From NCBI GenBank assembly GCA_966211115.1, contig CBIHMX010000001.1:1-33685 (forward strand): a stretch of DNA of 33,685 bases. The letters are read 5' to 3'. Numbering within the stretch: the first letter of the stretch is position 1; each line of letters opens with the position of its first letter. The position numbers and the translations under genes are program-made. Below the pieces are notes generated by a model that saw nothing but the letters and a program-made list of their open reading frames with translations, did no database searches and was not told the DNA's origin. The DNA comes from an uncultured Gemmatimonadaceae bacterium (GTDB lineage: Bacteria; Gemmatimonadota; Gemmatimonadetes; Gemmatimonadales; Gemmatimonadaceae). Below, in pieces: positions 1,368-30,580 of this stretch.

Positions 1368-2557
1368 TACGCCGGTGCGGTGGCGCGATGCGCCGCCATG
1401 TCCCGGTACAGGTGGACCCATTCGTCGCGGACGGCCGGCCAGGTATAACGCTCCAGGCAGGCCGCTCGCGCCGCCCTCGTCAGGCGCAACGCCAGACCCG
1501 GCTCCTCGAGCAGACGCAGTGACGCACGGGCCAGCGCGTCGTGATCGCCCGGCGGCACCAGCAAGCCCGTGTCCCCGTCCTTCACGATCCAGGGGATGCC
1601 GCCAGTTGACGTGCTCACGACCGGAACCCCGGCTGCCTGGGCCTCGATCAGCGACAGCGGCATGTTGTCGATATCGGGACTATTCAGGAGAATGTCGGCA
1701 TCGTTCAGCAGCCTGGCCATCTCGTCAGGCGGAACACGCCCCGTGAACGTCACGTTCCGGAGGTTCAGTGACCTGACCAGCGCTTCGAGTTTCCCCCGTT
1801 CACGACCGTAACCCGCCACCGTCAGCGTGGCCTCGGGTATCCGCTCCTGCACCAGCGCGAACGCGCGGATCGAGCACGACACATTGTAGTGCACCTCGAA
1901 ATTGCGATTGCTGAGGAACACCGGTCGAACCGTCGAACGTTCGCGGTACGGAAACGCATCGGCGTCGATGAAGTTGTGGATGGCAATCGTTTCGAGGCCG
2001 AACCGGGCAAAGACTTCTCGCAGGTAGCCAGAGGGCACCACGATCCGGTCGGCGAGCCGCGACAGCGGAATGGCGCTGCGCCAGTTGGCCAGGTGATCCT
2101 CTGCTTCACCACTGTGGTAGTTCAGCAACGCGGCGCGGCCAAAAAGGCGTGCCACAAGCATGGCCGGCACCGGACCAAGCAGGAACGCCCAATACGAAGG
2201 TGAAAAAGCGTGGACCACATCGAACTTGCGAACGCGCGACATGAGCAGGAACCAGTAGCCGATGGATGTGACGATAGTCCGGACGTACTTCACCCGCTGC
2301 AGTGCTCCGAGCGGCCCCGGAAGCCGCGGGTTCATCGGGAGAAACCCTACCTCGATGCCGGGTGTGCCGAGCAACCGATGATGAAGGCGCGCGAGTTGGA
2401 CAGCCTGACCACCAAGGATGTCCATCGAAGGACCGGCCAGACACACCCGAACCGGGACCACGGAAGGTTCGGGAGCCCGTCGCGCTAAACCTGTCAGTGG
2501 TCGTTCCCGGGTTGCCGTACGCTCCGTCAACGCGTCCTCATTCGGTGCGGAAGTCAT
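1367..2557 (-). CDS. Glycosyltransferase family 4 (GT-B fold, Glycos_transf_1)
   Basis: The ORF is 396 aa. Its C-terminal region (NSPDIDNMPLSLIEAQAAGVPVVSTSTGGIPWIVKDGDTGLLVPPGD) matches the retaining GT4 E-x7-E nucleotide-sugar binding signature. Confidence 0.9.
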   Translation of the reverse strand: MTSAPNEDALTERTATRERPLTGLARRAPEPSVVPVRVCLAGPSMDILGGQAVQLARLHHRLLGTPGIEVGFLPMNPRLPGPLGALQRVKYVRTIVTSIGYWFLLMSRVRKFDVVHAFSPSYWAFLLGPVPAMLVARLFGRAALLNYHSGEAEDHLANWRSAIPLSRLADRIVVPSGYLREVFARFGLETIAIHNFIDADAFPYRERSTVRPVFLSNRNFEVHYNVSCSIRAFALVQERIPEATLTVAGYGRERGKLEALVRSLNLRNVTFTGRVPPDEMARLLNDADILLNSPDIDNMPLSLIEAQAAGVPVVSTSTGGIPWIVKDGDTGLLVPPGDHDALARASLRLLEEPGLALRLTRAARAACLERYTWPAVRDEWVHLYRDMAAHRATAPA

Positions 2558-2664
2558 TGTGATATTAGCTTGTTACGCGCTGGCGACCCTCTGACTTCCC
2601 GTTCTCGGGAAGGGTCACGGACAACCACGCCCGGGCTTTCCCTTACCGAAACGTAGTCCCCAAC

Positions 2665-3636
2665 ATGGCATCGAGAGTTCTGGTTACCGGCGGCGCCGGG
2701 TTTATCGGTTCCCACCTGGTGCGGCGCCTGCTCGAAACCGGCCGGTCGGTTCGAGTGGTTGATAACCTCGCCACTGGCTTCCGGCACAACCTCGACGAGG
2801 TCGGCCCGGACATCGATTTCATCGAGGCAGACGTCAGCGATCCCTATGTCTGCTCCGAAGCCGTCGCGGGCGTCGATACCGTCTTCCATGTCGCGGCCCT
2901 GCCAAGTGTTCCGCGCTCAATGGCGGATCCAATCGGGACACATAACGCCAACGTCAACGCGACCCTCAACCTTCTCGAGGCATCGCGTCGAGCCTCCGTG
3001 CGGCGTTTTGTCTACTCGAGCTCGAGTTCGGCGTACGGCGATACGCCGGTTCTGCCCAAGGTGGAATCGATGGAGCCGCTCCCCCGGTCGCCTTATGCCG
3101 CAGCGAAGCTCTCCGGCGAGATGTATGCCCTCGCGTACGCTCGAGCCGGGCTCGTCGAGGCAGTTGCCCTCCGCTACTTCAATGTCTTTGGGCCGCGGCA
3201 GGACCCCAACGGACCGTACGCTGCGGTAGTGCCCCTCATCTTTCGGGCAATACTCACCGAAACGCCGATGACGATATTTGGGGACGGTCGGCAGACTAGG
3301 GATTTTACCTACGTCGACAACGTCGTCGACGCGAATGTACTCGCTGCCACCGGTCCGGGGGACAAGGTGAGCGGTCATGTGGTGAATGTTGGAACGGGAA
3401 ATCGCATCTCGTTACTCGACCTCGTCGCGCTGGCGGAGGACATCACCGAACGGCGCGTTGAGGTCCGTCACCTCAGGGAAAGGGCCGGCGATGTGCGGGA
3501 TTCCCAGGCGGGACTCGACCGGGCACGCGATGTGCTGAACTACCAGCCGCACGTCTCCATCCGCGACGGTATGGCGCGACTGTGGTCCTGGTATGCCGCG
3601 AATCCGTCAGCAGTCATTGCCGCCACGCCTGGATGA
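2665..3636 (+). CDS. NAD-dependent sugar-nucleotide epimerase/dehydratase (extended SDR; UDP-sugar 4-epimerase or decarboxylase-like)
   Basis: The ORF is 323 aa. It has the Rossmann motif VLVTGGAGFIGSHLV and the catalytic YAAAK (YxxxK). It has no in-window rival frame with sensible composition. Confidence 0.9.
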   Translation: MASRVLVTGGAGFIGSHLVRRLLETGRSVRVVDNLATGFRHNLDEVGPDIDFIEADVSDPYVCSEAVAGVDTVFHVAALPSVPRSMADPIGTHNANVNATLNLLEASRRASVRRFVYSSSSSAYGDTPVLPKVESMEPLPRSPYAAAKLSGEMYALAYARAGLVEAVALRYFNVFGPRQDPNGPYAAVVPLIFRAILTETPMTIFGDGRQTRDFTYVDNVVDANVLAATGPGDKVSGHVVNVGTGNRISLLDLVALAEDITERRVEVRHLRERAGDVRDSQAGLDRARDVLNYQPHVSIRDGMARLWSWYAANPSAVIAATPG

Positions 3637-4784
3637 CCGCACTCGAATCAGAAAACCGAACCAACACCGAGACCAGGTGGTCCTGGCCGGGCGAATTGTC
3701 GGCGCCCGCAGGTACCTCCACACTTCGCAGCGCCAAGTTGTGGGCACTCGGCCAGGCCAGGCGTGCTGGCGTGGTGCGGGCGGTCCGGGACAGCCACTGG
3801 CGAGGCCGGCGACTGCTGATTCTCGCCTATCACGGCCTGTCGCTGCGTGACGAACACGAATGGAGTCCCGAGCTCTACCTGCCCGTCGAAGCGTTGCGGG
3901 CACGGTTCGAAATCATACGCGACCAGGGCTACCAGGTCCTGCCGCTGAGCGAAGGCGTTCAGCGCCTGCGCGAAGGGTCCCTGCCACCGCGCGCCATCGC
4001 CCTCACGTTCGATGACGGCATGTGCGATTTCCTCGACCTCGGCGTTCCGCTCCTGCGCGAGTTCGGCTATCCAGCCACCGTGTACGTGACCACGTACTAT
4101 GCGGAAAAACAGGTGCCGGTTTTTCGCGTGGCTTGCCGGTATTTCCTCTGGCGTGGGCGCGACCGGGTGATCAGCGGGAAGGACCTGACCGCCGATGGCG
4201 GAACGCTGAAGCTCACGACCCTCGACGACCGGGACGCAGTGCTGCAAGCCATCGAGGACCGCTTGACGAGTATGGACGGCGGCATCGACGAGGAGTCGGC
4301 AACCTTGCGACGGCTCGCGGACCGTGTCGGCGTGGATTACGACGAGTTCCTCAGGGACCGCCTGTTACGCGTGATGTCGCCTGACGAGATCCGTTCCCTG
4401 CCGCCGGAACTCATCGACGTGCAGCTCCATACACACCGCCATCGCGTGCCGCTACGGAAGGAATCCTTCGTTCGCGAGATTGAGGACAACCGTCGTGCCC
4501 TTGCGCTGTGGCGCCCGGGGAGCCATTTCGACGCGTTCTGTTATCCGAGCGGAGTGACCGACGCGCGCTTCCTGCCCTGGTTGCGCGAGCAGGAAATACA
4601 GAGCGGGGTGACCTGCAAGGTCGGGCTCGCGACCGATCGTTCGGATCCGCTCCTGCTGCCGCGATTCGTGGACACGTCGTTGCGCACGCGCGTGGAGTTC
4701 GAGTCGTGGCTCTCCGGATTCGGCAGCCTGCTACCGCGGCTCCCGCACGCGGGCCGTTACAAACCCGGACCCTTCAGCGACTGA
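3633..4784 (+). CDS. Polysaccharide deacetylase (CE4 / NodB homology domain)
   Basis: The ORF track frame is 3582..4784. I prefer the ATG at 3633, which overlaps the epimerase TGA stop as ATGA. CE4 motifs present are LILAYHGLS, ALTFDDG and the HTHRH histidine cluster. Confidence 0.85.
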   Translation: MTALESENRTNTETRWSWPGELSAPAGTSTLRSAKLWALGQARRAGVVRAVRDSHWRGRRLLILAYHGLSLRDEHEWSPELYLPVEALRARFEIIRDQGYQVLPLSEGVQRLREGSLPPRAIALTFDDGMCDFLDLGVPLLREFGYPATVYVTTYYAEKQVPVFRVACRYFLWRGRDRVISGKDLTADGGTLKLTTLDDRDAVLQAIEDRLTSMDGGIDEESATLRRLADRVGVDYDEFLRDRLLRVMSPDEIRSLPPELIDVQLHTHRHRVPLRKESFVREIEDNRRALALWRPGSHFDAFCYPSGVTDARFLPWLREQEIQSGVTCKVGLATDRSDPLLLPRFVDTSLRTRVEFESWLSGFGSLLPRLPHAGRYKPGPFSD

Positions 4785-4793
4785 GGCAGGAAC

Positions 4794-6138
4794 TCAGAAA
4801 GCGGGTACCCGAATACCCATCGTCCGGCGGATGTAGATCCTGAGCGCCACGACACGGCCCGTCGCTGCGACCAGTGTCGCCGATGCGGTTCCGACCGCGC
4901 CATACCTTGGCGTAAGCAGCAAGGCCAGCCCGAGGTTCACGATGGCCGTCATGCCGATGATCCACGCTGCCTCTTTCTCGTGCGCCGTCATCGTCATGAG
5001 GTAGCCCGCAACCGCCCCCGAAATCCCGACGACCAGTTGGGCCAGGGTGAGGATAATCAGCACCTCGTGTCCTTCCGTCATGCCGTACAGCGAAAGCAGG
5101 AATGGGCCAAGGACGATCAGGCCGATCGCGATGGGGATCGAGACGCCAGCCGACAGCCACGTCACTGCGCGCACCAGCGACTGGAGTCGTCCCGGATCGC
5201 GGGTGTAGAGTTCGGCGATCATCGACATGGCGACGTACGTTACCGCCGACGAGGCGAGTGCCACTGGCAGCGTAAGCTGCGACGCGGCCGCGTACACTCC
5301 GGCTTGAGCCGTGGTGAGCATGGTTCCCACCACGATGACGTCAGCCTGCTGCGAGATGATCACCTGGCCGAGCGACACCGCGAAGAGCGGGTATGTGGTT
5401 CGGATCCCGGTCGTAGGTCGCCACCGCCGACCGCACAGCCTCCGGTACCGCGCGCTTCCGCCAGTACCGCGCCACGATCAGCGCCACGACGGCGCCCCCC
5501 AGGTTTGCCGCCACCGCCACCGACGTGGTGAGGCCCTCCTGGATCCGCACAATCACGACCATGATGATGCCGAACGCCGCCGGCCGCAGGAGATTCACCG
5601 GGAACTGCGCTTCTGCATAACGCTGGAAACCCTGCAGAATGGCGCCTTCGTAGAGGAGCAGCGTCAAGACGGGGAGCAGAGCGCACGCCACGATCAGCGC
5701 GTCAGGCAGCGAATGGTGCTTGCCAGCGAGGCCATCGCGGAAGAGCTGGATTCCGAGGACGCTGAGGATGGCAATCGCGACCGATACCGTGATCAACGCC
5801 GTGCGGCCCGCGCGGAGGTAACCCCGGAGCACGCCCCACTCCTCCGTGGCGGCGTACTTCCCGATGAATCGAACCGCCGTCACGTCGAGTTCCAGCTTGC
5901 CGAAGATCGTGGCAATCGCGAGCCAGCCCATGACAACGGCGTAGGTGCCGAAGGAGGCCTGTCCGAGGGCCTGGGAGAGCCCCATCTGCACGACCATGGA
6001 AATCGCGGCGCCGATGCCGCTGACCATGATCGTCTGCAGCGTCCCGCGCGCGACCTTGCCGCCCATCCTGTCCCGGGACAGGCGGGAGCGGATCATCTCC
6101 ACGGCTTCCGTGAACGCTGACTTCTCGCGCGCGGTCAC
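4794..6138 (-). pseudogene. Wzx/MOP-superfamily polysaccharide flippase (Polysacc_synt), split into two frames by a 1-nt frameshift
   Basis: The N-terminal roughly 250 aa lie in the frame of ORF 5341..6516 (..VARGTLQTIMVSGIGAAISMVVQ..ARYWRKRAVPEAV..). The C-terminal 194 aa lie in the +1 frame, ORF 4794..5378 (YPLFAVSLGQVIISQQADVIVVGTMLTTAQAGVYAAASQL..). Joined, they give about 448 aa, a normal flippase length. A possible GTG start at 6138 overlaps the upstream TGA stop as GTGA; an alternative ATG lies at 6096. Confidence 0.7.
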
Positions 6139-7658
6139 TTCTGTCGAGTGACGGCGAATGGTCCGCTGTCGGGAGCGGTTGATGGGGAACGCGCGATGAA
6201 ACGGCGCACGTCGTAGGTCTCGTTGGCAAACACTTCGGGGAACTGCGCCGGTCTCGCTTCCACGTACTCCCGGAACTTCCGCTCCGAGCTTCGCTCGACA
6301 TGCTCCAGCGGAATGACGACGTGCGTGATGCGCTGTCGATCCATTTCGGCGAGGACGTCTTCTGCCTCGCCATTTGGAATTCCCATCGAGGGCACTCCCG
6401 TTTCCAGCGTCAGCACGCGCGGATTGGTGAAGACGATTCGCATCCCCGATGAGTCTCCGGCTGTGCGTGCCCAGTCGAACAGCGCCATCGTGTCCGGGTC
6501 GCCGTAGAACGACCATCGAGCCGGCCGCCGCGCAACATGGATGGACGCGCCAATCGCCACCACCCCAACGAAGGTCAGGACGAACTTCGGCCAGTCGGCA
6601 CGAAGACCGGCAGGCGCATAACGAGTACCCAGCCAGAGCAACCCGATCGTGACCCAGGCCATCACGAGCGGAATGAGTGGCCAGGCGTAGCGCGGCTCGT
6701 GTACGGGAGCGACCAGTAGCACGCAGATGTACGCCAGCGTGAAACAGGCGAGTGCGGACCGGTACTGGCGCCGCGCAAACACCACCAGACCAATGACCAT
6801 GGGAATGGCCGCGACGAGGTGGTAGAAGTCGTCGGCGACGTTCACGTCGAACGGGTAGAGCGCCCCGGTGGCGAGGGCCACGACATACGTGGAAGCCAGC
6901 TTGGCGAACGAGAAGTTGCGTAATCCGTTTGCGATGCGGTCGTGGAACGGAATGCGGTCAAAGCCGATCCAGAGCACGAGCAGGAAGGCGACGGCCACCG
7001 CGGCCAGGGGAGCGAGCAACTTCCAGCGCCCATCGCGCTGGCGAAACCACGCAAACAGGAGCAACGCGGGCAGGACGGCGAGACCCGCCACCCGCACCGA
7101 AAGGACGGCCAGGCTCAAGACGCCGAGCGCCACGGCCTGGCGCCACCCAAAAGGACCCTCGGCATCTGCGACGAGCAGCATCATCCAGACCAGGAAGCAG
7201 AACAGCGGGTCCGAAAGCGCGGAGCTGTTTGCATACTGTGCCATCAGGGCAACCGGAGCCGCCGTGGTGGCCGCGATCCCAACGATCGGCTGACCGCGCC
7301 GCACAAAGTATATCCCTGTCGCAATTCCAAACGCTGCGACAAGCAGGGTCACCAGCGCCTTGGCCATGTCGAGACTGGTGCCGAAGACCGCCACAAATGG
7401 GGCCAGCACGAGCGGCCACCCGGGCGGCTGAAGGCTGGGCCCGACCAGATTCATTCTCGTGTAGATGTAACCGATGTCCTCGAACGCACGGCCTTCGGCG
7501 ATTGCCTTCGCGTGAAGCAGGTAATGCGCATAATCCCCGTCGGTGGCAGCTGGCGGCTCGGACCACGTCGCCACCACGATCAACAGGAACGGCAGCAGCG
7601 CCGCCAGCAGCAGCCAGCGTACCTGTCGCGGCGTCGGTGACCATATGTCCTGCGTCAT
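6135..7658 (-). CDS. Polytopic membrane protein, GT-C fold glycosyltransferase-like (ArnT/PMT_2-like), with a C-terminal soluble domain
   Basis: The ORF is 507 aa with about 10-12 hydrophobic segments. It has an early acidic loop (TDGDYAHYLLHAKAIAEGRAF) and a PPGWPLVLAPFVAVFG segment resembling GT39/GT83 enzymes. The functional call is pattern-level only. Confidence 0.55.
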   Translation of the reverse strand: MTQDIWSPTPRQVRWLLLAALLPFLLIVVATWSEPPAATDGDYAHYLLHAKAIAEGRAFEDIGYIYTRMNLVGPSLQPPGWPLVLAPFVAVFGTSLDMAKALVTLLVAAFGIATGIYFVRRGQPIVGIAATTAAPVALMAQYANSSALSDPLFCFLVWMMLLVADAEGPFGWRQAVALGVLSLAVLSVRVAGLAVLPALLLFAWFRQRDGRWKLLAPLAAVAVAFLLVLWIGFDRIPFHDRIANGLRNFSFAKLASTYVVALATGALYPFDVNVADDFYHLVAAIPMVIGLVVFARRQYRSALACFTLAYICVLLVAPVHEPRYAWPLIPLVMAWVTIGLLWLGTRYAPAGLRADWPKFVLTFVGVVAIGASIHVARRPARWSFYGDPDTMALFDWARTAGDSSGMRIVFTNPRVLTLETGVPSMGIPNGEAEDVLAEMDRQRITHVVIPLEHVERSSERKFREYVEARPAQFPEVFANETYDVRRFIARSPSTAPDSGPFAVTRQK

Positions 7659-12198: not shown

Positions 12199-15100
12199 GT
12201 GCTTACGCCTCGGGCAAATTTTGTATCCGGGATCCCGTTGACTAGAAACGACTTAGCCAGGAATCCATCCGCCTACCTGGACGCCCTCGACCGGCGCGTC
12301 CTGGTCTATGACGGAGCGATGGGCACGAGCATCCAGCGTTACAAACTGACCGCGGACGACTTCGGCGGCAAAGCCCTCGAAGGATGCAACGATCATCTCG
12401 TATTGACGCGCCCGGATGTCATCCGGGAAATCCACGAGTCGTTCATGGCAGCAGGGTGCGATGTACTGGAAACGTGCACGTTCCAGTCGACGCCCCGGCG
12501 CCTGGAAGAGTGGGGCCTGCTCGACAAGGCGCGCGACATCAACGTCCAGGCCGCCCGGCTCGCCCGTGAAGCCGCTGATCGTTATGCAACACCAGACCGT
12601 CCGCGATTCGTGGCTGGTTCGATCGGCCCGACCGGACTCCTTCCGTCCAGCAGCGACCCGGTCCTTTCCGATACCACGTACGAGGAACTGCTGGACCAGT
12701 ATTACCAGCAGGCCAAGTACCTCGTCGAAGGCGGCGTGGACGTCCTGCTGGTCGAGACGGCGCAGGACATCCTCGAGGTGAAAGCCGCCCTCGCCGGGTT
12801 CGAAAAGCTCTTCGCGGAACTCGGCCGGCGCGTGCCGGTCCAGGCCCAGGTCACGCTCGACACCAGCGGCCGGATGTTGTTAGGCACGGACATCGCCAGT
12901 GCGATGACGACGCTGGAGTCGCTCCGCGTCGACGTCCTGGGGTTGAACTGCTCGACGGGCCCCGAGCACATGCGGGAACCGATCCGGTACCTCACCGAAC
13001 ACGCGACGCGCCCGGTGTCCTGCATCCCGAACGCGGGGCTGCCCCTCAACACGGGAACCGGCGACGCGGTCTACCCGCTCGAGCCGGAACCGATGGCCAC
13101 GATGCTCGCCGAGTTCGTCCGCGACTTCGGCGTCAGGATCGTGGGCGGCTGCTGCGGCACGACTGCAGAGCACCTGCAAGCGGTGTGTCGCGAGATCGAT
13201 GCCCTCGGGGTCAGGGCGGTCCCGCACACCCAGACTGATGGTCTCGAACGTCCTGATTCCCGATTCCCGATTCCCGATTCCCGGATCCCCGATTCCCGAT
13301 TCCCGATTCCCGATTCCCGGATTCCCGAATCCCGTCGCCACGCGGTGCCCCGTCTGTCATCGGCAATGCGCGCCATCACCATGCGCCAGGATCCCGCCCC
13401 GCTCCTCGTCGGAGAACGGGTGAATTCGCAGGGTTCGCGCAAGGTGAAGCGCTTTCTCCTCGCCGATGACTACGACGGCATTCTCGACGTCGCCCGTGAA
13501 CAGGCCGAGTCCGGCGCGCATGTCCTCGACGTGTGCGTCGCACTCACCGAGCGTGCCGACGAAGCCGAGCAGATGGCGAAGGTCGTGAAGCTGCTCTCGA
13601 TGAGCGTCGAGTCGCCGCTGATGATCGACTCGACCGAGGCCGGCGTCATCGAAGCCGCGCTCGAGCACGTTCCCGGCCGCGCGATCATCAACTCCATCAA
13701 CATGGAGAACGGCCGCAAGCGTATCGACGCGGTCGTGCCGCTGGCGAAGAAACACGGCGCGGCGCTCGTCGCGCTCACCCTCGACGAAGTCGGCATGGCG
13801 AAAACGCGTGATCGGAAGCTCGAGATCGCGAAGAAGATCCATGACATCGTCGTGAACGAGTACGGGCTCACATCAGGGGACCTGGTCTTCGACGCCTTGA
13901 CCTTCACGCTGGCCACCGGCGACGCCGAATGGATCGAGTCGGCGAAGGAAACCATCGAGGGCATCCGGCTCATCAAGCGCGAACTGCCAGGCGTCTTCAC
14001 CATCCTCGGCGTCTCCAACGTCAGCTTCGGCCTGTCGGCCGGGGCGCGCGCCGTGCTGAACTCGGTGTTCCTGCATCATTGTGTGCAGGCTGGACTGGAC
14101 GCGGCGATCGTGAACCCCGCCCACGTCACGCCGTATGCCGAGATCCCGCCCGGCGAGCGCACGCTCGCGGACGATCTCGTCTTCAACAAGCGGCCGGACG
14201 CATTGCAGCGGTTCATCGAACACTTCACGCAGGCCGAAGGCGGCAGTGCAGCGGCCGAAGTGACGCGCGTGGATCCCACGATAGGCATGACGCCCGACCA
14301 ACGCGTGCACTGGATGATCGTCCATCGCAAGAAGGATGGGATCGAGGAGTCGCTCGATGCCGCCGGCGTTCGCGAAGCTCCGGTCCGTGTCCTGAATGAC
14401 GTCCTGCTCCCTGCGATGAAGGAGGTCGGCGACAAGTTCGGCGCCGGTGAACTGATCCTGCCATTCGTGCTGCAGTCGGCTGAAGTGATGAAGAAGGCCG
14501 TGAAGCACCTCGAGCAGTTCCTCGAACGTTCCGAGGGATACACGAAAGGCCGCGTGGTGCTCGCCACCGTGTACGGCGACGTCCACGACATCGGCAAGTC
14601 ACTGGTCAACACGATCCTCTCCAACAACGGCTACACGGTATTCGACCTCGGCAAGCAGGTGCCGGTGAACACGATCATCGACAAGGCGATCGAAGTGAAC
14701 GCCGATGCGATCGGCTTGTCGGCGCTCCTGGTAAGTACGTCGAAGCAGATGCCGATCTGCGTGCAGGAACTGGACAAGCGGGGGTTGAGCGTCCCCGTGC
14801 TGATCGGTGGCGCGGCAATCAACCGGCGGTTTGGCCGGCGTACGCTGTTCGTCGAGGGCGAGCGCGCCTACGGCCCGGGAGTGTTCTACTGCAAGGACGC
14901 CTTCGAGGGACTGGACACGGTCGAGGCGCTGATGGACGTGCCTAACCGCGCGACGCTGGTGAGGAAACTCGTCGACGAAGCACGCCGGGACGTGTTCCTC
15001 AACACTGCCATGGGCAAGGAGGATCGGGGGGGCACGACCGACACGCAGCGCAGTTCGGTCTCGGCTTCGAATCCCATTCCGTCGCCGCCCGCCTGGGGCG

Positions 15101-15930
15101 TGCGCGTGCTTCGCGACATCCCGCTCGATGAAGTCCTTGAACTCCTCGACCTGGATGAACTGTACCGGTTGCAATGGGGTGGTCGCGGTTCCGGCGAGGC
15201 GTACCAGGCATCGGTGCGCGACGTGTTCGCCCCCACGCTGGCCCGCTTGCGTGATGACGCGATGACCCGGGGCTGGCTCCAGCCGCAAGCCGTGTACGGG
15301 TACTTCCCCGTGCAGTCCGACGGGAACAGCGTGATCGTGTACGATCCAGCGGCGCTGGAGAGCGACGGAGGAGCGCGTCGCGAGGTGGCCCGTCTCTCGT
15401 TCCCCAGGCAGGAGGGTCGCGAGCGCCTTTGCCTGGCCGATTACTTCCGCTCGGTCGAATCAGGCGATGTCGACGTACTGCCCTTGCAGATCGTGACGGT
15501 CGGCGACGCCGCCGCGCGCCGGTTCGATGAGCTCCAGGCGGCCGGCGAGTACTCCGAGGCGTATTTCGTGCACGGCCTGGCCGTCGAGGCGGCGGAAGCC
15601 GTGGCCGAATGGCTGCATCGCCGGATTCGCAGCGAGCTTGGCGTGCCGGCCGGACGCGGCAAGCGCTACTCGTGGGGATATGGGGCCTGCCCCGACCTCG
15701 ATGACCACGCGGTGGTCTTCCGGCTCCTACCGGCCGAATCTGCGTTAGGCATGTCGTTGACCAGCGCGTTCCAGCTCGTGCCGGAGCAGAGCACGGCCGC
15801 CATGATCGTCCATCACCCCGAAGCGAAGTATTACAGCATTCGCGGCGAAGGCTCCGCTGAAGTCGACCGCCAGAAGCGGGAAACGGTGGGAACGGCCGAT
15901 TCCCGAATCCCGATTCCCGATTCCCGGTGA
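12199..15930 (+). CDS. metH: Cobalamin-dependent methionine synthase
   Basis: The ORF is 1243 aa with all four modules. The Hcy-binding domain has VLVYDGAMGT and GGCCGT. The pterin-binding domain has LLVGERVN. The B12-binding domain has the DxHxxG motif GDVHDIGK plus SALL and GGA. A C-terminal AdoMet activation domain is also present. The true start may be TTG 12238 (..TRNDLARNPSAYLDALDRRVLVYDG). Confidence 0.95.
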   Translation: MLTPRANFVSGIPLTRNDLARNPSAYLDALDRRVLVYDGAMGTSIQRYKLTADDFGGKALEGCNDHLVLTRPDVIREIHESFMAAGCDVLETCTFQSTPRRLEEWGLLDKARDINVQAARLAREAADRYATPDRPRFVAGSIGPTGLLPSSSDPVLSDTTYEELLDQYYQQAKYLVEGGVDVLLVETAQDILEVKAALAGFEKLFAELGRRVPVQAQVTLDTSGRMLLGTDIASAMTTLESLRVDVLGLNCSTGPEHMREPIRYLTEHATRPVSCIPNAGLPLNTGTGDAVYPLEPEPMATMLAEFVRDFGVRIVGGCCGTTAEHLQAVCREIDALGVRAVPHTQTDGLERPDSRFPIPDSRIPDSRFPIPDSRIPESRRHAVPRLSSAMRAITMRQDPAPLLVGERVNSQGSRKVKRFLLADDYDGILDVAREQAESGAHVLDVCVALTERADEAEQMAKVVKLLSMSVESPLMIDSTEAGVIEAALEHVPGRAIINSINMENGRKRIDAVVPLAKKHGAALVALTLDEVGMAKTRDRKLEIAKKIHDIVVNEYGLTSGDLVFDALTFTLATGDAEWIESAKETIEGIRLIKRELPGVFTILGVSNVSFGLSAGARAVLNSVFLHHCVQAGLDAAIVNPAHVTPYAEIPPGERTLADDLVFNKRPDALQRFIEHFTQAEGGSAAAEVTRVDPTIGMTPDQRVHWMIVHRKKDGIEESLDAAGVREAPVRVLNDVLLPAMKEVGDKFGAGELILPFVLQSAEVMKKAVKHLEQFLERSEGYTKGRVVLATVYGDVHDIGKSLVNTILSNNGYTVFDLGKQVPVNTIIDKAIEVNADAIGLSALLVSTSKQMPICVQELDKRGLSVPVLIGGAAINRRFGRRTLFVEGERAYGPGVFYCKDAFEGLDTVEALMDVPNRATLVRKLVDEARRDVFLNTAMGKEDRGGTTDTQRSSVSASNPIPSPPAWGVRVLRDIPLDEVLELLDLDELYRLQWGGRGSGEAYQASVRDVFAPTLARLRDDAMTRGWLQPQAVYGYFPVQSDGNSVIVYDPAALESDGGARREVARLSFPRQEGRERLCLADYFRSVESGDVDVLPLQIVTVGDAAARRFDELQAAGEYSEAYFVHGLAVEAAEAVAEWLHRRIRSELGVPAGRGKRYSWGYGACPDLDDHAVVFRLLPAESALGMSLTSAFQLVPEQSTAAMIVHHPEAKYYSIRGEGSAEVDRQKRETVGTADSRIPIPDSR
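13255..13333 (+). repeat. Heptanucleotide microsatellite (GATTCCC)n organised as two 36-nt in-frame higher-order units, inside the metH coding sequence
   Basis: The array has twelve 7-nt units. Positions 13255-13290 and 13291-13326 each consist of 4 x GATTCCC + G + one more heptamer (36 nt). They differ at one base. A GAATCCC unit follows. The array is translated as PDSRFPIPDSRIPDSRFPIPDSRIPESR. Confidence 0.95.
15898..15925 (+). repeat. Second (GATTCCC)n array (4 units) forming the last codons of metH, immediately before the metF-like start
   Basis: The units are GATTCCC GAATCCC GATTCCC GATTCCC, followed by GGTGA. They are translated as ADSRIPIPDSR followed by the stop. The GTG start of the next gene (15927) overlaps the TGA stop. 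Confidence 0.95.
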
Positions 15931-17855
15931 CGGTGCGCTCGGCTCTTCTCGAACGCCTCCTGGATCCCGAAAGCGTCGTCGTCTTCGACGGCGCGATGGG
16001 AACGATGCTCTATGCCCGCGGCGTGTTCATCAACCAGTGTTACGATGAGCTCAATACGCGCGCGCCCGACCTCGTGCGGGCGGTGCACGCCGAATACGCG
16101 AAGGCCGGCGCCGAGGTCCTCGAGACCAACACGTTCGGGGCGAATCGTCCCAAGCTGACCCAGTACGGCCTCGAAGGGCAGGTGGCCACGTTCAACCGCG
16201 CCGCGGCGCAGCTGGCGCGCGACGTGGCCGGCGAGACCCACCTCGTCGCCGGAGCCATCGGACCGTTAGGCGTTCGCCTCGAACCGTTCGGGCCCACCAG
16301 CCTCGACGAGGCGCGAACCGCGTTCGCCGAACAGATGACCGCGCTCAGGGAAGGGGGCGCCGATCTCTTTATCATCGAGACGTTCGGTGACCTCGACGAG
16401 ATCGCGCAGGCAGTGAAGGCGGCGCGCGACGTCGACCCGACCATGCCGGTCGTCGCACAGATGACCATCGGTACCGATGGTCGCACCCCGTTCGGCGCGT
16501 CGGCGGAAGACGTCGCCGGCTGGCTGGACGGACTCGGCGCCGACGTGATCGGGTTGAACTGCTCGGTCGGGCCACAGGGCATCCTCGAGGGCATCGAGCG
16601 CATGGTGCACGTCACGCGGCGGAAGCTGAGCGCGCAACCTAACGCCGGAATGCCGCGCGAGGTCGGCGGGCGCGCGATGTACATGGCCAGCGCCGAATAC
16701 ATGGCCACCTACGCCAGGCACCTCGTCCAGGCCGGCGCGCGGATCGTCGGCGGCTGCTGCGGGACGACCCCGGAACACATCCATGCCATTGCCGAAGGCG
16801 TCAGGCCGCTGGCACCCCGACTGGGACTGTACCGATCGAGAGGCCACGCGTCGCAGGCCATGGGAACGGCCGAGGCTCCGCCTGCCGGCCAGGACTCACC
16901 TGCGCGCGACTCACGAGTTGCGACTCACGAGTCACGCGCGGTCGAGTCCATTCCCTTCGCCGCTCGCTCGAGATGGGCGGCAAAGCTCGCAGCGCGGGAA
17001 TTCGTGACATCGGTCGAGATCGTGCCCCCGCGCGGCGTGAATGCCGACCGGATGCTCGCTGACGTCGGGTTGCTCAAGGCGGCCGGCGTCGACGCGGTGA
17101 ATGTTCCCGACGGTCCGCGCGCGCAGAGCCGCATGGGCGCGGTGATGACCAGCCTCCTCATCGAGCAGCGCGTCGGCATCGAGACCGTCACCCACTACTG
17201 CTGCCGCGACCGCAACCTGCTCGGGATGCTCAGCGACTTGCTGGGTGCGTCGGCGGTCGGGTTGCGCAACATCCTGCTCATCACCGGCGATCCGCCCAAG
17301 ATGGGCCCGTACCCCGACGCGACGGCCGTCTTCGACATCGATTCCATCGGCCTTACGAACCTGGTGCGGCACCTGAACGAGGGACTCGACCCGGGCGGCA
17401 ACCCGATCGGGGAGCCGACTCGTTATGCGATCGGCGTGGGCTGCAACCCCGCCGCGCTGGACCCGCAGATCGAGTTGAAGCGGTTCATGTACAAGGTCGA
17501 GGCTGGCGCCGAGTTCGCCGTGACGCAGCCGGTGTTCGACGTCGCCCAGCTCGAACGCTTCCTCCGGGAGATCGACAGCGTCCGCATTCCGGTGGTCGCC
17601 GGGATCTGGCCGCTCGTCTCGGCACGTAACGCCGAATTCCTCGCCAACGAGGTACCTGGCGTCGTGGTGCCGGAGGCCGTCCTGCACCGCATGCGACAGG
17701 CGAACGAGCGCTCAAAAGAACACGCGGTGGCCGAGGGCATCGCGATCGCCCGGGAAATGCTCAGCCAGGTCCGCGACACGGTGAGCGGGGTACAGGTTTC
17801 GGCGCCGTTCGGCAAGGTTGACCTCGCCCTTCAGGTGTTCGCCGGTACTTTGTAA
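15927..17855 (+). CDS. metF: Bifunctional homocysteine S-methyltransferase / 5,10-methylenetetrahydrofolate reductase (YitJ-like fusion)
   Basis: The ORF is 642 aa. The N-terminal S-methyl_trans domain has VVFDGAMGTMLY and GGCCGTTPEH. The C-terminal MTHFR domain has SVEIVPPRG, THYCCRDRN and ITGDPP. It shares a 4-nt GTGA overlap with metH. Confidence 0.9.
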   Translation: MTVRSALLERLLDPESVVVFDGAMGTMLYARGVFINQCYDELNTRAPDLVRAVHAEYAKAGAEVLETNTFGANRPKLTQYGLEGQVATFNRAAAQLARDVAGETHLVAGAIGPLGVRLEPFGPTSLDEARTAFAEQMTALREGGADLFIIETFGDLDEIAQAVKAARDVDPTMPVVAQMTIGTDGRTPFGASAEDVAGWLDGLGADVIGLNCSVGPQGILEGIERMVHVTRRKLSAQPNAGMPREVGGRAMYMASAEYMATYARHLVQAGARIVGGCCGTTPEHIHAIAEGVRPLAPRLGLYRSRGHASQAMGTAEAPPAGQDSPARDSRVATHESRAVESIPFAARSRWAAKLAAREFVTSVEIVPPRGVNADRMLADVGLLKAAGVDAVNVPDGPRAQSRMGAVMTSLLIEQRVGIETVTHYCCRDRNLLGMLSDLLGASAVGLRNILLITGDPPKMGPYPDATAVFDIDSIGLTNLVRHLNEGLDPGGNPIGEPTRYAIGVGCNPAALDPQIELKRFMYKVEAGAEFAVTQPVFDVAQLERFLREIDSVRIPVVAGIWPLVSARNAEFLANEVPGVVVPEAVLHRMRQANERSKEHAVAEGIAIAREMLSQVRDTVSGVQVSAPFGKVDLALQVFAGTL

Positions 17856-24884: not shown

Positions 24885-26057
24885 GTGAGCCAGGTTGAGG
24901 GAATTCCGGAGACCGTCGGGGCACTGACCAGCCTGACGCCTGACGAGGCAATGTTTCAAGACGCCGTCGCGGCCTTCGCCGAGAACGAGGTCCGCCCGCG
25001 CGTGAATGCGATGGAGAAGGCGGCGCACCTCGACCCGGCGCTCATCCGCGCCGCCTTCGACCTCGGCCTCATGGGCATCGAAGTGGACGAACGGTTCGGC
25101 GGCGCATCAGGCTCGCTCATGATGGTGACCATCGCCGTCGAGGCGATCAGCCGTGTGGACGCGTCGGCGGCGATCATCATCGACGTCCAGAACACACTGG
25201 TGAACTACCCGATCGCCCGGAACGGCAACGAGGAGCAGAAGCAGCAGTATCTCACGCGGCTGACGTCGAACACCGTCGGTGCCTACGCGTTGTCCGAACC
25301 CGGTTCTGGCTCCGACGCGTTTGGCCTGGCGACGCGCGCCGAACGACGCGGCGACACCTGGGTGCTGAATGGCCGGAAGATGTGGATCACGAACGGCGCC
25401 GAGGCCGAAATCTTCGTGGTCTTTGCGAACGCTGATCCCGCTGCCGGGCATCGCGGCATTACGGCGTTCATCGTCGAGAAGGGTTTTCCGGGCTTTGCCG
25501 TCGGACGCAAGGAGGACAAGCTCGGCATCCGCGCCTCGAGCACGACCGAGTTGATCCTCGACAACTGCGAAGTCCCCTCGGCCAATGTGCTTGGTCCGGC
25601 TGGACAGGGGTACAAGATCGCGATCGACACGCTGAACGGCGGCCGGATCGGTATCGGAGCGCAGATGATCGGCGTCGCGCGTGGCGCCCTCGACGCGGCC
25701 ATCGGGTACGTCAAGGAAAGACAAGCATTCGGGAAGAGCATTGCCGAATTTCAGGGGATCCAGTTCCAGTTGGCGCAGGCAGCGACCGAGCTGGAGGCGG
25801 CACGCCTCCTCGTTTACAACGCGGCCAGGCTTCGCGACACCGGGCGGGACGTGATGAAGGAAGGGGCCATGGCCAAGTTGTTTTCGTCCCAGGTGTGCGA
25901 ACGCGTTACGTCGCTCTGCGTCGAACTCTTCGGTGGCTACGGGTACACGAAGGACTTCCCAGTCGAGAAGTTCTACCGGGACGCCAAGATCGGCACCATT
26001 TACGAAGGCACGTCGAACATGCAGTTGCACACGATCGCCAAGCAGATCCTCAAGTAA
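24885..26057 (+). CDS. Acyl-CoA dehydrogenase (short/branched-chain type)
   Basis: The ORF is 390 aa. It has YALSEPGSGSDA and WITNG, and the catalytic-base region is IYEGTSNMQ. Confidence 0.92.
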   Translation: MSQVEGIPETVGALTSLTPDEAMFQDAVAAFAENEVRPRVNAMEKAAHLDPALIRAAFDLGLMGIEVDERFGGASGSLMMVTIAVEAISRVDASAAIIIDVQNTLVNYPIARNGNEEQKQQYLTRLTSNTVGAYALSEPGSGSDAFGLATRAERRGDTWVLNGRKMWITNGAEAEIFVVFANADPAAGHRGITAFIVEKGFPGFAVGRKEDKLGIRASSTTELILDNCEVPSANVLGPAGQGYKIAIDTLNGGRIGIGAQMIGVARGALDAAIGYVKERQAFGKSIAEFQGIQFQLAQAATELEAARLLVYNAARLRDTGRDVMKEGAMAKLFSSQVCERVTSLCVELFGGYGYTKDFPVEKFYRDAKIGTIYEGTSNMQLHTIAKQILK

Positions 26058-26086: not shown

Positions 26087-26135
26087 GGGGTCAGACACGG
26101 GGTCAGACCCCGGGTCTGACCCCGGGTCTGACCCC
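26087..26135 (+). terminator. 24-bp near-perfect inverted repeat (probable intrinsic terminator or protein-binding array) after the acyl-CoA dehydrogenase gene
   Basis: GGGGTCAGACACGGGGTCAGACCC (26087-26110) is the reverse complement of GGGTCTGACCCCGGGTCTGACCCC (26112-26135), with one mismatch. A T-containing tail (TTGGGTTTGACCTTGTTCT) follows. Confidence 0.5.
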
Positions 26136-26174
26136 GAACTTGGGTTTGACCTTGTTCTGACCACGGAGTAGCCG

Positions 26175-30205: not shown

Positions 30206-30580
30206 ATGACACCTCTCCATGCGATCCGGCTGGCCATGATGGGCGGAGTACTGCTCTTCGGAGGCGTTTCCTGGTTCCTGCATCGCACTCCGGATTGGAC
30301 ACCCGCCGATCCCGCCGTCGTCGCTCAACTGGCGACGGTTGGACGCGTCATGTGGCTGGTCGCGGGAATCGGTCTCGTCATTCTGTTCTTCCGCTTTCGG
30401 GACGCGGCCAATCCCGGACAGGCGAGCACGCTGGCCATCCTGGCCTGGGCGTTAGGCGAATCGGTGGCGCTGTTCGGCGGCGTGGTCTTCTTCCTCACCG
30501 CCGCCGCGGCGTGGTACGTCGCCGGTGTCGTCGCGCTCACCATAGCCTTCGTGGCCTTCCCGCCGCCGGTGAACCGGTGA
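30206..30580 (+). CDS. Small integral membrane protein (4 predicted TM segments), unknown function
   Basis: This is the frame of ORF 30083..30580. I trimmed it to ATG 30206 (MTPLHAIRLAMMGGVLLFGGVSWF) to avoid overlap with the divergent M61 gene. It is hydrophobic throughout. Confidence 0.55.
   Translation: MTPLHAIRLAMMGGVLLFGGVSWFLHRTPDWTPADPAVVAQLATVGRVMWLVAGIGLVILFFRFRDAANPGQASTLAILAWALGESVALFGGVVFFLTAAAAWYVAGVVALTIAFVAFPPPVNR

Follow-up and report, generated by a model that had tools for sequence, protein, structure and literature searches.

The window analysed here, a 33,685-nt stretch of DNA from an uncultured Gemmatimonadaceae bacterium (contig CBIHMX010000001.1 of assembly GCA_966211115.1), contains a metH gene for cobalamin-dependent methionine synthase (MetH) in which an array of GATTCCC-type heptamers lies in frame, in the linker between the homocysteine-binding and pterin-binding modules. 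We concluded with good confidence that the array is a tolerated, lineage-specific slippage expansion of a dispersed simple sequence repeat (SSR), (GGGAATC)n, in an unconstrained MetH linker. A preliminary description of this DNA had named a tolerated simple-repeat invasion of a flexible linker as one explanation, and this is now supported by the low model confidence over the insert (predicted local distance difference test, pLDDT, <50), the short linker of Thermus MetH, an array-free relative at 89% identity and the assignment of the array to a known repeat class. In this way, a 7-nt repeat is carried in frame in an essential enzyme, apparently by means of a compensating 1-nt insertion and a 36-nt higher-order duplication.

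The array at 13255-13333 reads (GATTCCC)x4 G GATCCCC (GATTCCC)x4 G GATTCCC GAATCCC, which comprises nine GATTCCC units, one GATCCCC and one GAATCCC, with single extra Gs at 13283 and 13319; the longest uninterrupted run is four perfect units. Its sequence and, by the Pfam boundaries, its position in the metH linker had been described correctly in substance, but it had been called perfect and counted as twelve heptamers, whereas variant units and two 1-nt insertions are present and the whole heptamers number 11. Tandem Repeats Finder (TRF) returned 11.7 copies at period 7 (89% matches, 5% indels) and 2.2 copies at period 36 (95% matches). The window holds 12 matches to a two-unit pattern (at most two mismatches) where shuffled sequences lead one to expect 0.39, and none of 100 shuffles reached 12. 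Lag-7 self-identity of at least 0.75 was confined, within the window, to this array and to another GATTCCC array further along the same open reading frame (ORF), at 15896-15926, which had been overlooked; no comparable self-identity was present across the window at lags 5, 6 or 8-11.

The two 36-nt units with one mismatch, reported earlier to encode the same peptide twice, were confirmed by parsing and translation, each of them encoding DSRFPIPDSRIP in the frame of ORF 12199-15930. The whole array is free of stop codons in all six frames. When one or two heptamers were added or removed in silico, the product ended at 405-425 aa, which bears out the earlier statement that gain or loss of a single heptamer truncates MetH. 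The accompanying claim that a 7-nt unit cannot preserve the frame holds for one or two units and fails for three, since a change of three heptamers (21 nt, DSRFPIP), like one of 36 nt, leaves the frame open. The minus strand, which is the template strand, reads (GGGAATC)n, with nine GGGAATC, one GGGGATC and one GGGATTC.

The identity of the host enzyme is clear. Pfam recognized S-methyl_trans (PF02574, aa 35-332), Pterin_bind (PF00809, aa 405-639), B12-binding_2 (PF02607, aa 705-772), B12-binding (PF02310, aa 784-873) and Met_synt_B12 (PF02965, aa 1008-1215), so the homocysteine, pterin, cap, B12 and activation modules are all present and in order. The product matches the full-length Thermus MetH structures 8g3h and 8ssc (E=1e-257 to 1e-263), the top Foldseek matches are MetH, with a TM-score of 0.80 to 8ssc for the N-terminal half, and the closest named relatives belong to Gemmatimonadaceae. 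The length of 1243 aa given in the preliminary description stands when translation is counted from the first GTG and not when the gene callers are followed, as they begin 13 codons later and yield 1230 aa. Because of this later start, an exact look-up of the 1243-aa product was empty; the collection lists the 1230-aa form as P0125. As for a second methionine synthase, no metE candidate was found in the window, where no ORF has that size except metH and one overlapping ORF, and metE is absent from the gene calls of a near-identical contig spanning about 2,200-25,300 of the window.

The insert falls in a structurally unconstrained part of the enzyme. The array peptide occupies aa 353-379, between S-methyl_trans and Pterin_bind, and alignments with Thermus MetH break at query residues 340-382, a stretch that only about 3-9 residues span in the Thermus chains. 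The N-terminal 687 residues were modelled with AlphaFold2 using 60 orthologues, and the model superposes on MetH of human, Thermus and Thermotoga; pLDDT is below 50 without secondary structure over ORF residues 345-381, and about 85-95 in both barrels. The insert is therefore predicted by this model to be a disordered coil between two confident barrels. Among the best 120 orthologues, the linker is hypervariable in sequence as well as in length, which ranges from 22 to 90 aa between the conserved flanks CREIDALG and VPRLSSAMRAIT.

An alignment of MetH orthologues, which the preliminary description had put forward as a check, showed that the insert is lineage-specific. About 66 nt, exactly at the array, are missing from the closest sequence outside the window's 90% cluster, P0002 (89% identity), and the C-terminal tail of P0002 has decayed GAGTCAC-like sequence where the window has the 3' array. 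Within the cluster, seven full-length members, taken from separate ENA contigs that are consensus assemblies, are seven distinct sequences with four linker variants and one common array length. Both extra Gs and the array were reproduced in three other contigs from different ENA analyses (MEGAHIT and SPAdes), with single substitutions, and the second array is the same in the other haplotypes. Each haplotype differs from the window by 3-8 aa, 3-6 of them inside the 72-residue linker. Since length is fixed while point substitutions have accumulated, point mutation has proceeded faster here than slippage, whereas a contingency locus would show the reverse. In the assemblies examined, the array behaves as a fixed, slowly decaying insert with none of the expected signs of a switch.

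Several candidates for length variation were traced to other causes. A 1223-aa cluster member was considered as a three-heptamer deletion and rejected, as its 7-aa shortfall is a different start call, and the 1-nt omissions called at 13283-13287 in metagenome contigs come from pure arrays of other loci. JGI metagenome contigs were also scanned for length variants with anchors and a variable gap, and no copy of this strain's locus was matched. In one haplotype group (P0121, P0122 and P0126; also runs X2 and X4), five substitutions are clustered within 11 nt (13319-13329) at the 3' edge of the array and change RIPE to QTPG; P0126 pairs this change with upstream variants of the other haplotype group. 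This mosaic suggests recombination or a template switch rather than independent point mutations.

The main array is the reverse complement of a dispersed, G-quadruplex (G4)-capable heptamer class, (GGGAATC)n, described in Xanthomonas and Nostoc (Rehm et al., 2015; PMC4692102). That class was defined by at least two units (at least 14 bp) that fit (GGGANTN)n and include GGGAATC at least once (PMC4692102), and the main array satisfies this definition. In two Xanthomonas genomes, 186 and 183 copies were counted with a modal length of four units; 89-93% were intergenic, 7-11% overlapped ORFs and 70-75 convergent inverted pairs occurred per genome (PMC4692102). The preferred sites were the 50 bp that precede an ORF, if the G-rich strand is non-coding, and the 50 bp that follow a stop, if it is coding (PMC4692102). 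The oligonucleotide (GGGAATC)3GGG forms a G4 in vitro by circular dichroism in K+, with a T1/2 of 50.4 C; no regulatory role was found in Xanthomonas, where phase variation was judged unlikely because most associated genes belong to general metabolism (PMC4692102).

The arrays of the window resemble those copies in many respects. The unit is the reverse complement of theirs, each of the two blocks of the main array contains exactly four perfect units and the 3' array likewise contains four, all with the four G-tracts required, and the exact oligonucleotide occurs three times, so that by analogy the template strand would be G4-capable. Canonical motifs (four G3 tracts with N1-7 spacers) in the 33.7-kb window number zero on the plus strand and four on the minus strand, all within the two metH arrays. 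As in the described class, the repeats appear, from metagenomes and relatives, to be dispersed and abundant; they occur as single arrays and as inverted pairs (the latter in relatives of the window), show no association with surface or virulence genes and, in one window copy, adjoin an ORF start with the G-rich strand non-coding: the 3' array covers 0-31 nt upstream of the next ORF. In contrast, the host belongs to Gemmatimonadota, a phylum that the earlier work leaves out (PMC4692102), and the main copy is intragenic, in frame in mid-protein, which is the minority class in Xanthomonas. Its 11 units also represent a duplicated 36-nt unit with a frame-restoring G, and in Gemmatimonadaceae GGGAATC is one of many four-unit motifs, nearly half of which cannot form a G4.

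The evidence for dispersal is indirect. The window alone holds two arrays and one decayed relative in 33.7 kb. Eight soil and rhizosphere metagenomes that contain the locus gave contig k-mer depths of about 1,800-6,800 over the array versus about 5-12 in the flanks, and dozens of metagenome contigs enter the array and exit into unrelated sequence. A scan of one genome per species found (GATTCCC)3 in at least 119 stretches; among the matches listed, 12 stretches are from Gemmatimonadaceae or Gemmatimonadota, and Xanthomonas, Luteimonas, Pseudoxanthomonas, Dokdonella, Rhodanobacteraceae, Acidobacteriota, Moorena, Microcoleus and Nostoc are also included. Period 7 dominates the tandem repeats of these stretches with 421 arrays, no other period exceeding 46. 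A literature search on heptamer repeats in Gemmatimonadetes found nothing specific, and a paper on frame transitions (PMC3711429) was set aside as not relevant to heptamer repeats. A second enzyme with a like insert is an acyl-CoA carboxyltransferase (PF01039) in locus L007, where an inverted heptamer-array pair of GGGAACC and CGATTCC types at 1788-1866 is translated in frame in mid-protein as SGIGNRESGVDGYRGRSDSPFPVPGSQ.

The generality of the pattern was assessed in 80 orthologous loci (668 kb), selected on MetH conservation alone and regardless of repeats. Linker 1 (homocysteine to pterin) carried 2.60 period-7 arrays/kb (at least one array in 10/61 loci), linker 2 (pterin to cap) 1.64/kb (12/59), the interdomain linker of the fusion gene downstream of metH 0.89/kb (12/50) and the metH tail and junction 0.58/kb (7/53), versus 0.01/kb in metH domain-coding DNA (1 array in 123 kb; 1/37) and 0.14/kb elsewhere in the loci (17/37). 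A clear heptamer array at linker 1 in about 16% of 61 loci, and at the next linker in about 20%, contradicts, for this family, the earlier remark that such an insert would be unusual for metH under either explanation. An impression from the first four orthologous loci, that arrays sit in every linker, was also dropped, as that set had been picked for visible peptide periodicity; in the unbiased sample of 80 loci, the share per site is 16-24%.

Among the 53 arrays of linkers and tails there are 28 motifs, in either orientation, with a median of 4.3 copies and a maximum of 9.3; a G3/C3 tract is missing from 25 of these arrays, and the coding strand bears the G-tract in 22 and the C-tract in six. 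The 11.7-copy array of the window is the longest seen at the linker 1 site, and its orientation is the less common one. At the protein level, the arrays appear in orthologue linkers and tails as the 7-residue-periodic peptides VTSHESR, QAPGPRP, DSRFTIH, VPGSRFP and GNRESGI, which translate the heptamers GAGTCAC, CAGGCCC, GATTCAC, GGTTCCC and GGGAATC, respectively, the last on the coding strand. Across the 120 orthologues, lag-7 amino acid identity was raised only in linker 1 (0.162 vs about 0.09 at other lags) and in the tail (0.187), and was not raised in the MetH domain cores. In linker 2, one clade shares GIGNRESGIG in graded states of decay in the orthologue alignment; therefore, the arrays are inherited and erode slowly.

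In 217 kb of Gemmatimonadaceae DNA, the lengths of perfect lag-7 tracts fall into a background of 14-20 nt and a second mode at 24-35 nt, separated by a gap at 21-23 nt. This bimodality holds with and without G3/C3 tracts, although only 13 tracts are without G-tracts and the sample was partly chosen on GATTCCC arrays. The mode of about four units is also present in motifs without a G3/C3 tract, such as CGAGTCA, GAGGTCA and AGCCATC, and G4 formation is therefore not the sole reason for the four-unit preference.

Some further features of these loci were recorded. The pterin-to-cap linker (aa 655-712 in orthologues) has a near-constant length of 63-67 aa though it is array-written in one clade, and its arrays sometimes form inverted pairs (loci L125, 4053-4129, and L127, 11979-12009). 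In locus L124 (contig_43195, 752 kb), gene calls near metH are fragmented: Hepar_II_III is in three pieces, and only the methylenetetrahydrofolate reductase (MTHFR) part of the downstream fusion gene is called, an unannotated minus-strand ORF lying in between. The pattern resembles that of indel errors in a long-read assembly. Just past the metH stop, locus L124 has a perfect (CGATTCC)x4.3 array.

Considering these results, we propose a plausible sequence of events. Slippage would drive the birth and growth of heptamer arrays in unconstrained DNA, namely intergenic regions, interdomain linkers and C-terminal tails, and selection would remove the versions that break a frame or disturb a domain. 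In the lineage of the window, GATTCCC units may have been expanded by replication slippage in linker 1, after which one extra G behind a four-unit block would have restored the frame (4x7 + 1 + 7 = 36 nt) and the 36-nt unit would then have been duplicated. One G insertion followed by duplication is the order we favour because both copies carry the G at the same position, and only frame-restoring total lengths would survive because 7 is not a multiple of 3. Point substitutions would since have begun to erode the array. The outcome would be about 24-27 extra Pro/Ser/Arg/Asp-rich residues, forming a longer disordered loop between the barrels and presumably leaving MetH function unaffected, so that these steps would probably have been neutral.

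The preliminary description had also raised a contingency (phase-variable) switch, in which heptamer slippage would turn B12-dependent methionine synthesis off and on in a subpopulation. Tandem tracts are slippage-prone in principle, a change of one or two heptamers would shift the frame and truncate the product, and related arrays vary in length between species, both in the orthologous loci and in published genomes (PMC4692102); nevertheless, we consider a switch very unlikely. The seven haplotypes have one length at consensus level (n=7) with substitutions inside and beside the array, two variant units and two 1-nt insertions interrupt the tract, and MetH has a housekeeping role in the cytoplasm. 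Unrelated enzymes have similar arrays in their linkers, whole clades retain in-frame copies that decay, and Rehm et al. judged phase variation unlikely for the class (PMC4692102). That collapsed or misjoined reads made the array or its 36-nt duplication, which had been named as a possible refutation, is hardly credible. Repeats are hard for short-read assemblers and Logan contigs (k=31) break inside the array, but both extra Gs recur across ENA analyses and two assemblers with distinct linked substitutions, the array keeps open a 1243-aa ORF with five intact domains, and its 79 nt would fit inside a typical short read. In run X2, one k=31 contig extends from the left flank to 13315 with zero mismatches, and a second, which begins at 13290 and continues into the right flank, shows six base differences that correspond to a variant haplotype.

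The array might instead be a selected functional module, acting on transcription through a template-strand G4 or i-motif or tuning linker length for MetH domain motions. Array density in linkers is 100- to 260-fold that of domain-coding DNA and 10- to 18-fold that of the remaining locus sequence, array length has a tight mode of about four units, the 3' array occupies the favoured site of the class (0-50 bp in front of an ORF, the G-rich strand being non-coding), and the exact oligonucleotide forms a G4 in vitro (PMC4692102). Such a function is nonetheless unlikely, as motif, strand and presence are not conserved (28 motifs, nearly half without G3/C3, with G-tracts on either strand), about 80% of orthologues have no clear array at a given linker, many linkers are very short, the closest relative has no array and the work on Xanthomonas detected no regulatory role of the class (PMC4692102). 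An mRNA structure as the function of this copy was rejected, since the RNA fold of 13235-13350 is weaker than that of shuffled controls (z = +2.1). The same lack of a stable hairpin argues against a mobile palindromic element, that is, a repetitive extragenic palindromic (REP)-like or miniature inverted-repeat transposable element (MITE)-like insertion with heptamer-array arms. Close inverted array pairs are common in relatives, metH linkers included, 70-75 inverted pairs occur per Xanthomonas genome (PMC4692102) and the window has a hairpin of short tandem units at 26087-26136, but both metH arrays share one orientation with no inverted partner nearby, only one other plus-strand GGGAATC is present in the window (at 30364), terminal inverted repeats and target duplications are absent, and the unit variants and 36-nt duplication form a slippage-type structure; we therefore regard such an element as highly improbable. 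A more speculative idea, which we hold to be rather doubtful, is that Gemmatimonadaceae arrays, instead of being passive remains of slippage, are modules of about four units (about 28-31 nt) that a G4-independent process makes or maintains, one that preferentially builds disordered linkers and junctions of multidomain enzymes, the metH array being two modules in tandem. Stop-free junction arrays might then serve as ready-made linkers at gene fusion, because the window's array is stop-free in six frames (as others presumably are), and the fusion gene downstream of metH bears arrays exactly at its joint.

Tolerated slippage expansion of the dispersed repeat thus remains our preferred explanation, and some points weigh against it. 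Consensus assemblies would hide rare length variants within populations, and the public-run k=31 contigs, which break inside the array and are overwhelmed by other loci with this repeat, are silent on such variants. The recurrent occupation of linkers and the tight mode of about four units, even in motifs without G-tracts, could reflect selection or an active process. In addition, the repeat copy number of the source genome is estimated from metagenome depth and from relatives, and the neutrality of the insert for MetH function is something that we infer.

The heptamer array also bears comparison with other repeat systems. Mrazek, Guo and Shah, in a survey of genome statistics in PNAS in 2007 (ref. 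33 of PMC4692102), reportedly found over-represented long SSRs with units of 5-11 nt in large high-GC genomes. The window fits this picture as a heptamer in a GC-rich (65%) soil bacterium, and the abundance of such repeats is best accounted for by a general tendency to expand rather than by a specific role; unlike in that survey, the array is in frame in an enzyme linker. Filamentous cyanobacteria carry short tandemly repeated repetitive (STRR) sequences, which are tandem heptanucleotides, dispersed and mostly intergenic. The genomes of Moorena, Microcoleus and Nostoc also contain GATTCCC arrays, although the classical STRR motifs have other sequences and come from AT-richer genomes. The cyanobacterial heptamers have been used for fingerprinting (PMC5088731).

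Phase-variable 7-bp repeats control HMW1A of Haemophilus influenzae (PMC8262952), and these share with the present array a 7-nt unit that is slippage-prone in principle. The HMW1A tracts are long, uninterrupted, polymorphic between and within strains and belong to surface adhesins (PMC8262952), whereas the window array is fixed in length across haplotypes, interrupted and in a housekeeping gene. In Borg proteins, tandem repeats are reported to create new intrinsically disordered regions (PMC9879509). The likeness is that recent, lineage-specific tandem DNA repeats are translated as disordered segments; the window differs in having a 7-nt unit with the frame kept only at the 21- or 36-nt level, a bacterial chromosome as host and a repeat class that is also present in intergenic DNA.

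Taken alone, the metH array is a curiosity, and the wider pattern is more useful. The GGGAATC repeat class is extended to another phylum, Gemmatimonadota, and heptamer arrays of many sequences systematically occupy unconstrained linkers and junctions of conserved Gemmatimonadaceae enzymes. The four-unit habit of motifs unable to form a G4 bears on why the class prefers four units. For annotation, the arrays explain 7-residue-periodic inserts rich in Pro, Ser, Arg and Gly and length variation in Gemmatimonadaceae proteins, and for assembly, heptamer arrays mark break points of short-read graphs.

Table 1. Coordinates of metH, its heptamer arrays and neighbouring features in the window
Feature	Position	Strand	Details
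metH ORF, cobalamin-dependent methionine synthase	12199..15930	+	1243 aa from first GTG; gene callers start at 12238, 1230 aa
Homocysteine-to-pterin interdomain linker, aa 333-404	13195..13410	+	Pfam boundaries; orthologue alignment
Main heptamer array	13255..13333	+	11 GATTCCC-type units and 2 extra Gs; encodes DSRFPIPDSRIP twice, then ESR
36-nt super-unit 1	13255..13290	+	(GATTCCC)x4 + G + GATCCCC; TRF period 36
36-nt super-unit 2	13291..13326	+	(GATTCCC)x4 + G + GATTCCC; 1 base different from super-unit 1
G4-type motifs	13259..13318	-	Exact (GGGAATC)3GGG at 13259-13282, 13288-13311 and 13295-13318; regex
Second GATTCCC array, 4.4 units	15896..15926	+	Last 10 metH codons, ADSRIPIPDSR*; TRF
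Downstream ORF, homocysteine S-methyltransferase/MTHFR fusion, 642 aa	15927..17855	+	PF02574 aa 18-290; PF02219 aa 353-617
Decayed GA(C/G)TCAC-type heptamer array, peptide DSPARDSRVATHESRAVES	16893..16946	+	S-methyl_trans/MTHFR linker; TRF period 14 at 16906-16932

The second array adjoins the GTG start of the next ORF, which overlaps metH in a GTGA stop/start arrangement (Table 1). The pair of metH and the downstream fusion gene is also found in relatives, and 12/50 orthologous loci have fresh arrays at the joint of the fusion gene that corresponds to the decayed array of the window.

Elsewhere in the window, the intergenic segment 26087-26136, just 3' of the stop of ORF 24885-26057, consists of tandem units of about 12 nt (GGGGTCAGAC... 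/ GGGTCTGACCCC) in inverted arrangement. These units fold as one long hairpin (-64.7 kcal/mol, z = -9.3), and the segment looks like a terminator or REP-like element made of short tandem units.

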